DNA of 32,000 nucleotides from Acinetobacter wanghuae. GTDB lineage: Bacteria; Pseudomonadota; Gammaproteobacteria; Pseudomonadales; Moraxellaceae. The notes under the pieces are model-generated. The model ran no database searches and was not told the origin of the DNA. It was given only the letters and a program-made list of their open reading frames with translations. The translations under genes were made by a program, and so were the position numbers. The stretch's first letter is position 1. Every line of letters starts with the position of its first letter. This document shows, one piece after another, positions 2,407-32,000 of this stretch. The stretch lies in the NCBI RefSeq assembly GCF_009557235.1, contig NZ_CP045650.1:2735766-2767765 (forward strand), given 5' to 3'.

Positions 2407-2523
2407 GAGCTGGCGATGACTTACTCTCACATGGGTAATCCCACACTACCATCAGCGCTAAGAGGTTTCACTTCTGAGTTCGGGAAGGGATCAGGTGGTT
2501 CACTCTTGCTATTGTCGCCAGCA
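2407..2523 (-). rRNA. rrf: 5S ribosomal RNA
   Basis: The reverse complement reads TGCTGGCGACAATAGCAAGAGTGAACCACCTGATCCCTTCCCGAACTCAGAAGTGAAACCTCTTAGCGCTGATGGTAGTGTGGGATTACCCATGTGAGAGTAAGTCATCGCCAGC. It contains the canonical 5S core motifs CCGAACTCAGAAGTGAAAC and GATGGTAGTGTGGG. Ends are +/-3 nt. Confidence 0.95.
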
Positions 2524-2702
2524 CAACTGTTTATGATTACTCGCTATGGTCTTAGTTGCTTTCGCATGCCTAGCTTTGGTCAAAAGAGTTATTAACAGAG
2601 ATATTTGAGTATCGATGTGTTGCTTAATTTTACTTAGCTTTCAAACTAAATCAAGTTGTTTTGTAGTGATTTCGACTACAACACCAACTGTTTGGGTGTT
2701 GT

Positions 2703-5597
<2,895 letters not shown>

Positions 5598-6056
5598 ATA
5601 CAACCCCAAACAGTCGACGGTACCTACAAGGAGCACCTTCAACATACAGTTCGAAGTACTGTGAATCTAATCACTGTACAGCTTCAATCAAAATCATATA
5701 CCAAAACGCTTGATTCAGTTAATCGCTAGTTTCTCATCACTTCTTATTCAACCACTCACTTAGCTTACGCTTTGTAAGTTGTTGTTTAATTAGCTCTGAG
5801 CCTTAAACAATTTATTTCAACTCAAATATATTCTGTTAATGATTGTCTACGTCCTCATCGGATCGTAGCAACTGTGATAAATCACAGAGATTACCAAGTG
5901 CGCGTATCATAACGCTTATACTTGTTAATCTCTAGAATCTAAACACTTGACAGCTCAAGGACTAATCAACCTCAGCACCGTATGATCACATACTGCGCGA
6001 AGCGTAGCTTCTTGCCTAAATTTCAAGGAAAAGCATGCTTTTCTTGTCTTGAAATT

Positions 6057-6132
6057 TGGTGGAGACTAACGGAGTCGAACCGTTGACCTCCTGCGTGCAA
6101 AGCAGGCGCTCTACCAACTAAGCTAAGTCCCC
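6057..6132 (-). tRNA. tRNA-Ala (anticodon TGC), in the 16S-23S spacer
   Basis: The reverse complement is GGGGACTTAGCTTAGTTGGTAGAGCGCCTGCTTTGCACGCAGGAGGTCAACGGTTCGACTCCGTTAGTCTCCACCA. It folds as a cloverleaf with the G3:U70 Ala identity pair, anticodon loop CTTTGCACG and an encoded CCA. Confidence 0.95.
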
Positions 6133-6175
6133 AGCTTATCATTTAGATCAATGTATCTGATTTCTGTTTTGCAGA

Positions 6176-6252
<77 letters not shown>

Positions 6253-6312
6253 TCAGGTACATCGTATGAAGAACAACTTGTTGTGGATTCTTACCAATCG
6301 TCAATCTTTCGT

Positions 6313-7841
<1,529 letters not shown>

Positions 7842-12107: not shown

Positions 12108-13397
12108 TTATCTTAAAATTTTCTTGGCATTTTCATCCCGAAAAGCTTTTAAAATTTGCTGTCCTGCACGCCCTGTTAGACTTAAGCCCAAACGACTTTG
12201 CTCTTGACGAATAGCTTGACGAGATTTATCACCAATCAGACCATCGACCTCACCAATATCATAGCCGCGGTTTAATAAAAACTGTTGAATTTCACGACGC
12301 TCTGCACGCGAAGTACCGGCATCAGCTGTTGGCCAAGTTTGTTTGAAGCCACCCTGTCCTTGTAAACGATCGGATAAATGTGCAATCGCTAAAGCATAAC
12401 TTTCAGCAGCGTTATAACTATAAATCGCATCGAAGTTTTTAAACACGAGGAAGACAGGACCGCTTGCACCGGCAGGTGCCATAAGTCCCGCTTGTGAATA
12501 TTCAGACAAACTACCTTGAATAAGTGGCGAACCATCAGCCCGCACCACTCCACGACTCATCCAAGTATTTAAAGCCTTTTTATTTTTACGACTTTCTCCT
12601 GAAATTGACATATTTTCAGGAATTTTGACTTCAAATCCCCATGGCTGACCATTTTGCCAACCGCGCTTATTCAAAAAATTGGCGGTCGAAGCCAATGCAT
12701 CTGGAATACTGCTCACTAAATCACGTCGACCGTCACCATCAAAGTCAACTGCGAGCTCATCATAAGTCGAAGGCATAAACTGCGTATGACCGAAAGCGCC
12801 TGCCCATGAACCTTTTAATTGATCTTCACTGACATCGCCACGTTGTAATAATTTTAACGTCGTGAAAAATTCACCACCGAAATAGCCTTGTCGACGCCCT
12901 TCACAACTCAACGTCCCGAGTGACTGCAATAAAGGATATTTTCCTGCGATATCTCCAAAATTACTTTCTACTCCCCAAACTGCAACGACTGTTTCTGCAG
13001 GTACGCCATAACGCGCTGCAACACGATCTAAGACGCTTCGATGCTGTTGTAATTTTTGGCGCCCCAATTGCACACGCTCTTCGTCAACGAGACCAGATAA
13101 ATAGTCCCAAATAGGTGTCGAAAACTCAGGTTGATAGTTGAGTTTCTCTATAACTGAATAATCAGGCGTTAAATTTTGCGTATAACGATCATACGTTGCA
13201 GCACTCACACCTTTCGAGATGGCTTGAGATTTTAAGTTCGCCAAGCAATTTTGAAACGTATTAGAAGTTGGTGAATAAGAGACACCACGAGTTGATAAGT
13301 CAGCAGGTGCTACTCGCTGCCCATTCATAATTAATTCAGCATGTGCCTGTGAAGCTGCCAAAACCACACAACCAACAAAAAGTGCAAGCCGTTGCAT
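12108..13397 (-). CDS. Lytic murein transglycosylase (MltB/SltB family 3 catalytic domain plus C-terminal peptidoglycan-binding domain), secreted
   Basis: The ORF is 429 aa. It has a signal peptide MQRLALFVGCVVLAASQAHA, the catalytic-region motif VWGVESNFG and a C-terminal PG_binding_1-like repeat (LLNRGYDIGEVDGLIGDKSRQAIRQEQ). Confidence 0.88.
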   Translation of the reverse strand: MQRLALFVGCVVLAASQAHAELIMNGQRVAPADLSTRGVSYSPTSNTFQNCLANLKSQAISKGVSAATYDRYTQNLTPDYSVIEKLNYQPEFSTPIWDYLSGLVDEERVQLGRQKLQQHRSVLDRVAARYGVPAETVVAVWGVESNFGDIAGKYPLLQSLGTLSCEGRRQGYFGGEFFTTLKLLQRGDVSEDQLKGSWAGAFGHTQFMPSTYDELAVDFDGDGRRDLVSSIPDALASTANFLNKRGWQNGQPWGFEVKIPENMSISGESRKNKKALNTWMSRGVVRADGSPLIQGSLSEYSQAGLMAPAGASGPVFLVFKNFDAIYSYNAAESYALAIAHLSDRLQGQGGFKQTWPTADAGTSRAERREIQQFLLNRGYDIGEVDGLIGDKSRQAIRQEQSRLGLSLTGRAGQQILKAFRDENAKKILR

Positions 13398-13534
13398 AAG
13401 ACCCTTTCATACTTAGATTTCGAATTATAGATTTACCTTAACAGCTCAAATTAAAAATGAAAGCATGCAAACGTAACTTTAAATTCATAATTCCTGTATT
13501 TTTAAATTCATTTTGTTGTTTTGAATTCAAAACC

Positions 13535-13543
13535 TTATCCACA
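13535..13543 (+). promoter_or_regulatory. Perfect consensus DnaA box TTATCCACA outside oriC
   Basis: This is an exact 9/9 match to the consensus DnaA box. It is followed by 6 nt and TTTAAATTTAAA, the same arrangement as at 31965-31991. Confidence 0.6.
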
Positions 13544-13682
13544 GTATTTTTTAAATTTAAAAACCGCGATATCTTTTGAATTTAAAATTAAAAATTGGCG
13601 CTAATAGTTATGAATTCAAAATACTACCTGTGAGTAACTTTGATACTATTTTTTTAATTGGATATTTATCAAAATCTTAAGC

Positions 13683-13691
13683 TGTGTATAA
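13683..13691 (-). promoter_or_regulatory. DnaA box-like site TTATACACA (E. coli R2-type, 8/9)
   Basis: The plus strand reads TGTGTATAA, located in the spacer between the two repeat clusters. Confidence 0.4.
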
Positions 13692-14000
13692 AAAATAAAG
13701 CGCGATCCAATTATTTTAAATTTAAAACTTTGAATTCATAGTAGTGATTTGAATTTAAATTCATAACTTGCATGTCTCAGACTTTAAATTCAAAACGTAT
13801 TTTTTAAATTTATTATTTTGAATTCAAAACCGTCACATTCTTTTAAATTCAAAGTATTTCTCTTGGAACAAAAAAGGTCTGACTGGGCATTTTTTATTTA
13901 TTATTGATTGTATATTTTTTAGACTATTGAAATATATCGTGATCCGATAAATGGATGTCATATTTTCAAGAGGCGCAATCATGCCTGAATCAAAGCAAAT

Positions 14001-14033
14001 AAAAAAGCGACCACTGGAGTGATCGCTTTTTTT
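14001..14033 (-). terminator. Rho-independent terminator of purEK
   Basis: The minus strand reads GCGATCAC-TCCA-GTGGTCGC (one mismatch) followed by a T run, about 20 nt after the purK stop. Confidence 0.7.
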
Positions 14034-14049
14034 ATCAGCAAGTTAACGC

Positions 14050-31339: not shown

Positions 31340-31474
31340 TTAAACAGTTAAGCTATGACGACCTTTTGCACGACGGCGAGCTAATACTTGACGACCAGCT
31401 TTAGTAGCCATACGAGCACGGAAACCATGAACGCGCTTACGCTTTAATTCAGACGGTTGGAATGTACGTTTCAT
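31340..31474 (-). CDS. rpmH: 50S ribosomal protein L34
   Basis: [44 protein letters not shown] (44 aa) with GGAG 8 nt upstream. The 67-aa ORF-track version is an upstream over-extension. Confidence 0.97.
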
Positions 31475-31543: not shown

Positions 31544-32000
31544 TGCAAATCAGATTTTCTTTTTTAGATAGGACTGATATTCAATAAATATGATGAACTT
31601 TTCTAGAAAGGTTTTAAATGTCATAAATGGAATTAATCACAAATTAAGTATTTGTTTTAAATAAATTAAATAATTACCAACATGTATATCAACAGAGTTA
31701 TCCACATAGTTATTATTAGTTCATCTCTGAAACCCTAGATTTAAATTTAAAACACTGCAAATTATCCACAGAAATCTCTTTTGTTATTATTAAATTCAAA
31801 TTTATAAATTTAAGTATATTACTATTAGGGCGGCTTTTTTCTGTGGAGATGTACATTTTAATATTTTAAATTAATATTTTACACTGTGGATAACATTGTT
31901 TTTAATATTCTTATACTTTGTGGATAACTTTATGATATATTTTATCCACAGCATGCGGATAAACTTATCCACATGTGATTTTAAATTTAAATTTATTCAC
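31544..32000. other. Chromosomal replication origin region (oriC / dnaA upstream region), truncated by the window end
   Basis: Perfect DnaA boxes TTATCCACA lie at 31698-31706, 31762-31770, 31942-31950 and 31965-31973 (+). Perfect boxes TGTGGATAA lie at 31885-31893 and 31919-31927 (-). There is an 8/9 box TGCGGATAA at 31954-31962 and a very AT-rich stretch at 31786-31882. The position next to rpmH is canonical for Pseudomonas/Acinetobacter-type origins. Confidence 0.85.

Follow-up and report, generated by a model that had tools for sequence, protein, structure and literature searches.

Why would the gap between a lytic transglycosylase gene and purK be filled, in a bacterial chromosome, with one palindromic 12-mer? 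The question is raised by a 32,000-nucleotide (nt) stretch of the Acinetobacter wanghuae chromosome (contig NZ_CP045650.1; hereafter the window), in which the gap between mltB and the purK terminator (13398-14049; 652 base pairs (bp), GC content 0.26) carries an array of 14 copies of TTTRAATTYAAA at 13478-13853. The motif, the orphan N6-adenine methyltransferase AamA that recognizes it and a densely methylated cluster called 'Region 1' have already been described in A. baumannii; the genus-wide conservation of the array and its interleaving with DnaA boxes are, as far as we could find, new. Taken as a whole, an AamA array that would also serve as a replication-coupled element appears to us the best explanation and a rather probable one, with the two parts differing in strength as set out below.

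Fourteen copies of a 12-mer in the mltB-purK gap

All 14 copies that a preliminary description of the window had listed were recovered by motif and mismatch scans. Its outline of the locus held as well, with an mltB start at 13397, a purK terminator at 14001-14032 (minus strand) and a gap lacking any open reading frame (ORF) of 60 amino acids, the longest being 49. Eight copies are exact: sites 3 and 13 (TTTGAATTCAAA, 13520-13531 and 13817-13828), sites 4 and 7 (TTTAAATTTAAA, 13550-13561 and 13715-13726), sites 5 and 9 (TTTGAATTTAAA, 13575-13586 and 13748-13759), and sites 11 and 14 (TTTAAATTCAAA, 13783-13794 and 13842-13853). Four differ at one position, namely sites 1 and 10 (TTTAAATTCATA, 13478-13489 and 13754-13765), site 6 (TATGAATTCAAA, 13609-13620), and site 8 (TTTGAATTCATA, 13729-13740), and two differ at two positions, site 2 (TTTAAATTCATT, 13501-13512) and site 12 (TTTAAATTTATT, 13803-13814). 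Sites 9 and 10 overlap by 6 nt, an arrangement seen again in other species. The copies form clusters of six (13478-13620) and eight (13715-13853) around a motif-free spacer of 94 bp (13621-13714), much as had been described.

Base composition does not account for this density, as the preliminary description had maintained. In 2000 dinucleotide-preserving shuffles of 13398-14049, exact copies averaged 0.02 (maximum 1) vs. 8 observed, and copies with at most one mismatch averaged 0.37 vs. 13 observed, while whole-window shuffles gave a mean of 0.06 per 32 kb. Exact copies are absent from seven other AT-rich intergenic regions of the window. The only further exact copies in the window, at 31740 and 31980, both lie within oriC, in agreement with the earlier claim that the motif is confined to the gap and the origin. 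The 10-mer WTRAATTYAW, which fits all 14 copies, including the two with two mismatches, occurs 14 times in the gap, five times in the part of oriC within the window and once in the remaining ~31 kb. Every RAATTY hexamer of the gap falls within a copy, and the 71 such hexamers elsewhere in the window lack these flanks. The larger recurring units that had been pointed out (TTTTGAATTCAAAACC at 13519 and 13816; CGCGAT-N4/8-TTTRAATTTAAAA at 13565 and 13701) are present. Recent tandem duplication was rejected, because these units are merely 62-86% identical and their likeness is driven mostly by the motifs themselves.

AamA, Region 1 and conservation across Acinetobacter

The preliminary description knew of no described element with this site, a statement that the literature overturns: TTTRAATTYAAA is the target of AamA (A1S_0222), an orphan N6-adenine methyltransferase, as found by single-molecule real-time (SMRT) sequencing of A. 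baumannii ATCC 17978 (Yang et al. 2023, PMC10483419). The enzyme modifies the adenine at position 6 on both strands; in the wild type 59 of the 66 strand occurrences are methylated, and in an aamA mutant none (PMC10483419). The methylated sites collapse into 12 regions, of which Regions 1 and 2 are dense and show the highest interpulse duration (IPD) ratios (PMC10483419). Region 1, fully methylated on its two strands, comprises 29 methylated positions (15 palindromes) over 612 bp, with 'mltA, lytic murein transglycosylase' as its listed neighbor, and Region 2 lies at rnpA/yidD/dnaA, 19.4 kb from Region 1; more than half of the methylated positions sit at two places 19 kb apart, oriC and the Region 1 array (PMC10483419). 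The aamA mutant grows more slowly, and its dnaA and rnpA are up 1.5-2.4-fold (PMC10483419). Related N6-methyladenine (m6A) motifs have been reported in all A. baumannii strains tested (PMC10287943), in further A. baumannii isolates, and in Acinetobacter sp. NCu2D-2 and A. equi. AamA relatives are reported with 6-9-base motifs (RAATTY, WTRAATTYA, WYRAATTYA), and the activity of AamA is reported to have been demonstrated first in vitro, on a GAATTC-containing fragment. Dam methylase is reported to be absent from Acinetobacter (PMC10287943).

The gene order of the window, tyrS-anmK-mltB-[array]-purK-purE, is shared with A. baumannii X4-300, in which 14 exact sites stand between mltB and purK, 19.4 kb from the oriC motifs. 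Their spacings (105, 25, 37, 25, 20, 140, 25, 37, 36, 36, 37, 25, and 63) reproduce exactly the pattern of the published Table S1. Since gene order, position and distance to oriC (18.2 kb in the window) all match, the window array is the Region 1 orthologue in another species. It has in common with Region 1 of ATCC 17978 the motif, the position between purK and the lytic transglycosylase gene at ~19 kb from oriC, and the two-cluster layout with a central gap. It differs in having 8 exact and 6 degenerate sites rather than ~15 sites, with individual positions turned over, and it is known here from sequence alone. Site 6 corresponds to the published 'Motif II', which is methylated in ATCC 17978 (PMC10483419). 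The window array is therefore very probably a dense cluster of recognition sites for AamA, a core methyltransferase of Acinetobacter. The earlier view of the dyads as protein-recognition sites stands insofar as a protein recognizes them, but the known protein is a methyltransferase and not a repressor-type operator protein.

The 32-kb window contains no methyltransferase gene. In X4-300, we identified a candidate AamA gene (L332, 6093-7385, minus strand; L numbers are our locus identifiers), a 430-amino-acid ORF whose product has the motifs FAGSG and DPPY and which lies where the locus tag places it relative to dnaA, ~255 kb from oriC. Its context, nrdR-ribD-aamA-ribE with holC and pepA adjacent, agrees with the neighbors named in the paper for its methyltransferase genes (PMC10483419). 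The predicted protein matches Pfam MethyltransfD12, with ~140 residues C-terminal of the match falling outside any family assignment, and a sequence search of the PDB returned no relative. A 4-nt overlap of the candidate with the stop codon of ribD points to a co-transcribed core gene. Whole A. baumannii chromosomes labeled as plasmids in PLSDB (NZ_CP064203.1, NZ_CP077849.1, NZ_CP104448.1; 3.66-4.09 Mb) provided the chromosome samples.

A search with MltB gave 80 loci, and the array persists upstream of mltB in ~60 loci of Acinetobacter type. In 52 of the 55 best Acinetobacter loci, the 350-650 bp upstream of mltB hold 4-15 exact copies (most 7-15). Exact copies upstream of mltB are also present in Alkanindiges (L063) and one relative (L061), and no non-Moraxellaceae locus among the 80 has exact copies there. 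Divergent Acinetobacter-type loci (L056-L060 and L062, from A. marinus, A. qingfengensis and several metagenome-assembled genomes) have neither purK nor the motif upstream of mltB, and in A. marinus guaB takes the place of purK. Between species the positions of the sites turn over, and their number and the two-cluster layout persist; the central gap (~95-170 bp) recurs in other species, and its edge toward mltB often carries a perfect DnaA box. The logo of 565 sites reads W-TTTRAATTYAAA-W, with nothing conserved further out. Conservation at the level of the motif, proposed earlier as a test of the array, is borne out by an alignment of seven close relatives: identity to the window is 84% in motif columns, 47% in spacers, and 100% in the DnaA box, in an alignment that may slightly favor repeated motifs. 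Selection thus acts on the motif.

Some arrays have been split or stand apart from mltB. In A. haemolyticus CIP 64.3 (L041, 2712-3644), a DDE transposase insertion splits the array at the central gap; in Acinetobacter sp. ANC 4805 (L066, 2433-3410), a fatty-acid desaturase gene splits the array, and both halves keep exact sites; and in Alkanindiges (L063, 2933-3742), the array and mltB are separated by an RlaP-family gene. In a metagenome scan for triple motifs, every non-tandem array of at least seven copies was an Acinetobacter purK-mltB locus, the other matches being low-complexity DNA or unrelated repeat families. Two such families share the core of the motif: L330 (2246-2527) has ~10 tandem 27-bp units, each with TTTGAATTCAAA, and L325 (5510-5885) has copies of TGTTCCATTTTAAATTCAAAA in inverted orientation. 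These repeats may be iterons or operators of other elements.

A strand asymmetry was also observed in the otherwise palindromic site. Read in the direction of mltB, the sites of L001-L066 and the window have G at position 4 in 53% of cases and C at position 9 in only 29%, so that TTTGAATTTAAA outnumbers TTTAAATTCAAA. The asymmetry could stem from mutational skew or from function.

DnaA boxes in the array and at oriC

Overlooked in the preliminary description, a perfect DnaA box (TTATCCACA, 13535-13543, plus strand) lies inside the array, 3 nt after the end of site 3 and 6 nt before the start of site 4. Outside oriC the window has no other perfect box, and the full conservation of this one in the seven relatives contrasts with the divergence of its flanks. 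The central spacer holds two degenerate boxes, TTATACACA with one mismatch (13683-13691, minus strand) and TGTGAGTAA with two (13630-13638), and one consensus match for integration host factor (IHF; 13667-13679), of a kind frequent in AT-rich DNA and found similarly in some species, not all. Across the loci, perfect boxes number 90 in 30.6 kb of arrays (2.9 per kb), compared with 24 in the 506 kb of these loci that lie outside the arrays (0.047 per kb). Nearly all species carry them within the array, one to four per array, at variable position and orientation and typically 3-7 bp from a motif, the usual module being motif-N3-6-TTATCCACA-N5-7-motif with divergent linkers. Two box positions recur across species, at approximately -145 and -240 from the mltB start, and some species have back-to-back pairs (A. 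calcoaceticus, L028; A. rudis, L051). By comparison, ~290 kb of the X4-300 chromosome outside the array and oriC contain a single perfect box and a few 12-mers that are isolated or lie within genes.

The same two kinds of site meet at the origin. The oriC box cluster of the window (31698-31973, six perfect boxes) lies between rpmH (31340-31474, minus strand) and the window end, 18.2 kb from the array, and this partial oriC contains two exact motifs and one near motif. One exact motif (31740-31751) stands 10 nt before the box at 31762 and the other (31980-31991) 6 nt after the box at 31965, reproducing the box-N6-motif spacing of 13535/13550. Among their DnaA boxes, ten complete oriC regions from Acinetobacter, fetched via RpmH, each have 2-4 exact and 2-4 near motifs, and in A. 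baumannii-type origins the motifs are 122-128 bp apart, matching the published Region 2. Methylation sites are thus concentrated in oriC among DnaA sites, as in SeqA-type systems. In the literature that we found, AamA sites in Acinetobacter are nowhere linked to oriC or to DnaA boxes.

The association does not extend to every AamA cluster. Region 12 is the third region of A. baumannii with multiple sites, and its X4-300 orthologue (L336, 45837-46130) has four exact motifs at spacings of 174, 16, and 92, inside the coding sequence of an smtA-like S-adenosylmethionine (SAM)-dependent methyltransferase, with a fifth exact motif 1.1 kb away. No DnaA box lies nearby even when one mismatch is allowed. 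AamA clusters are therefore not coupled to DnaA in general, and the coupling appears specific to the array and oriC.

In both dense clusters, at oriC and 18-19 kb away from it, methylation sites are interspersed with DnaA boxes, and for this reason we propose, as a serious but tentative possibility, that the array acts as a replication-coupled, DnaA-linked control element paired with oriC, beyond a promoter operator. Hemimethylation, DnaA occupancy and timing are what we infer here. Because the two loci are only 18 kb apart, a fork leaving oriC would turn the sites of both from fully methylated to hemimethylated soon after initiation. In this transient state, DnaA might bind the embedded boxes to a different extent, or the binding of a hemimethyl reader might change, or that of AamA itself, acting as a sink. 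Such a change would by feedback influence re-initiation and the expression of dnaA, with an effect on mltB transcription as a secondary consequence. A bolder version, which we regard as doubtful though worth stating, is that the array and oriC form a methylation-gated initiation control that arose independently of Dam/SeqA, in which hemimethylation would control DnaA binding at the interleaved boxes. A core methyltransferase specific for 12 bp would then have most of its best targets at the origin and at one origin-proximal array, and the outcome might be titration or inactivation as at datA, or occlusion of the SeqA kind by a reader yet to be discovered.

Known systems resemble the locus in part. 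In E. coli Dam/SeqA, as in Acinetobacter, an orphan adenine methyltransferase has targets concentrated at the origin among DnaA sites, and dnaA expression changes upon loss of the enzyme. However, E. coli has ~19,000 GATC sites, in contrast to tens of sites per genome for the AamA 12-mer, and the main AamA cluster lies outside oriC. The E. coli loci datA and DARS1/2 are DnaA-box clusters outside oriC that inactivate or reactivate DnaA. Like the array, they are non-coding, origin-linked loci with high-affinity-type DnaA boxes, but they are defined by at least three boxes in a fixed arrangement, whereas the boxes of the Acinetobacter arrays vary in number and placement, the window array lacking such an arrangement. 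They also lack the methylation array that dominates the Acinetobacter locus, in which the IHF site is a consensus match. In the Caulobacter CcrM (GANTC) ratchet, origin-near promoters would likewise change methylation early, with timing set by fork passage and distance from the origin; CcrM differs in being cell-cycle regulated and in acting on targets with one or two sites rather than an array of 14.

Rival readings, flanking genes and implications

The main rival is an epigenetic promoter switch alone, in which AamA methylation tunes mltB transcription and DnaA is an ordinary transcription factor. This would extend the published view, since Region 1 was read as a promoter switch in the A. 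baumannii study, where oriC and DnaA boxes are not mentioned (PMC10483419). We consider it possible but on the doubtful side. In its favor, nearly every species carries the array immediately upstream of mltB, and a DnaA-box cluster is reported to regulate a neighboring operon at P. aeruginosa oriCII, upstream of gidA (PMC13438810), which is likewise a second DnaA-box region near the true origin, in a related order; its neighboring genes are different ones, and it involves no methylation array. On the other hand, 8-15 sites and 1-4 boxes over 350-650 bp seem far more than a 1.6-fold effect would need. The RlaP-family gene parts the array from mltB in Alkanindiges, and the purK-side half of the ANC 4805 array keeps 4 exact sites beyond the desaturase gene. 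Promoter control also leaves unexplained why the only other dense cluster with the highest IPD ratios is oriC.

Several observations weigh against the replication-coupled role that we propose, and two of them fit simple promoter control directly: expression of 'mltA' rises 1.6-fold in the aamA mutant, an effect that complementation reverses (PMC10483419), and A. rudis has lost purK and keeps the array beside mltB. The insertion sequence in A. haemolyticus splits the array without obvious loss of either half, and the spacings of the sites follow no single helical phase (peaks at 25, 20, 36-37, 19, 26, 44, and 30 bp). The window array, with one perfect, one 1-mismatch and one 2-mismatch box, has fewer DnaA boxes than datA/DARS loci, and the Region 12 orthologue has none. 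To our knowledge, no hemimethyl-binding protein or SeqA-like reader has been described in Acinetobacter, and none was searched for. Methylation and its dependence on aamA are taken from the A. baumannii literature rather than from the organism of the window, and the conservation and enrichment counts include many related genomes that are not phylogenetically independent.

The preliminary description saw in the array an operator or nucleation site for a dimeric DNA-binding protein. That such a further protein, be it a regulator or nucleoid-associated, is what the array serves, with AamA methylation incidental or modulating, is improbable. The perfect dyad symmetry of the 12-14-mers, their high local density and the motif-level selection would suit such a protein, and a 12-base site is long for a methyltransferase whose relatives have 6-9-base motifs. 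We know of no separate dimeric protein that binds these sites, and no regulator gene is linked to the array in the loci examined. Moreover, methylation of these exact sites depends on aamA in A. baumannii (PMC10483419).

An iteron-type or secondary origin, either an integrated plasmid remnant or an oriCII-like element, is very unlikely. Repeats, a DnaA box and AT-rich DNA give a superficial likeness, and V. cholerae ori2 offers a precedent, with 11/12-mers (RctB sites that need Dam methylation) that likewise carry a methylatable adenine beside a DnaA box. However, the ori2 repeats are direct, phased iterons with an initiator encoded nearby, whereas the array is palindromic and unphased, with irregular spacings of 6-140 bp, and its neighbors are mltB and purK rather than an initiator gene. 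A scan of viral contigs for motif pairs found chance-like single pairs or (AAATTT)n runs with at most 4 copies, and no phage arrays. A BLAST search for distant matches in plasmids gave four matches, at least three of which are the mislabeled A. baumannii chromosomes, and no plasmid origin with the array. The locus is, instead, vertically conserved between core genes.

The remaining two readings are barely credible. The absence of any specific function, with the gap seen as AT-rich DNA of low complexity, as the outcome of local duplication, or as DNA that is curved or melts easily, would agree with its GC content and its weak larger repeats, but the shuffles, the conservation of motifs beside diverging spacers and the maintenance of site number despite positional turnover effectively refute it. 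The easily melted DNA entertained in the preliminary description fails to single out this region, since the window has two further stretches that match or exceed it in AT content and lack the motif. A small RNA with the palindromes as structural elements could occupy a 650-bp gene-free gap beside a bidirectional terminator, but the strand symmetry of the motif and the lack of conserved site positions among distant species make a structured RNA a poor fit, and Rfam scans (gathering and E-value thresholds) gave nothing relevant and no match near any gathering score.

Downstream of the array, mltB (12108-13397, minus strand; TIGR02283, 3e-109) encodes a lytic murein transglycosylase of the MltB_2 subfamily and corresponds to the 'mltA' of the A. 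baumannii study. The stretch next to its start (13398-13477, minus strand) is conserved as a block and may contain the promoter, with a TATAAT-like hexamer at 13424-13429 (minus strand); a promoter scan gave fewer promoter-like sites than shuffles did. The purK terminator, a hairpin with A- and T-runs on both sides, is the far boundary of the gap and the only terminator detected. PurK, PurE, AnmK, and TyrS are 91-97% identical to those of the A. lwoffii/variabilis group and MltB just 83%, by which MltB, beside the array, would seem to be evolving faster or to have been exchanged. Near the terminator, a 13-codon ORF (MPESKQIKKRPLE, 13968-14022, plus strand; ATG at 13981, preceded by AAGAGG) runs into the hairpin, and the block AAGAGGCGCAATCATGCCTGAA is invariant in seven lwoffii/variabilis-group relatives amid variable surroundings and is absent in A. 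baumannii, whose array reaches almost to purK. This region could be a small gene or the 3' end of a small RNA. A complete ribosomal RNA (rRNA) operon (16S, two tRNAs, 23S, 5S; 2408-7841, minus strand) lies ~5.6 kb past the array in the direction opposite to oriC, which probably explains why the draft contigs of many relatives end just past tyrS.

How Acinetobacter limits initiation to once per cycle is not addressed in the papers that we found. The genus has a conserved orphan methyltransferase with a few dozen strong sites per genome, and the array is a concrete candidate for a cis-acting replication regulator. If the array controls mltB alone, it would still be an unusually elaborate case of epigenetic promoter control. 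If it is coupled to replication, the pleiotropy of aamA mutants in growth, envelope, and antibiotic susceptibility may partly reflect misregulation of replication or the cell cycle, rather than many separate promoter switches.

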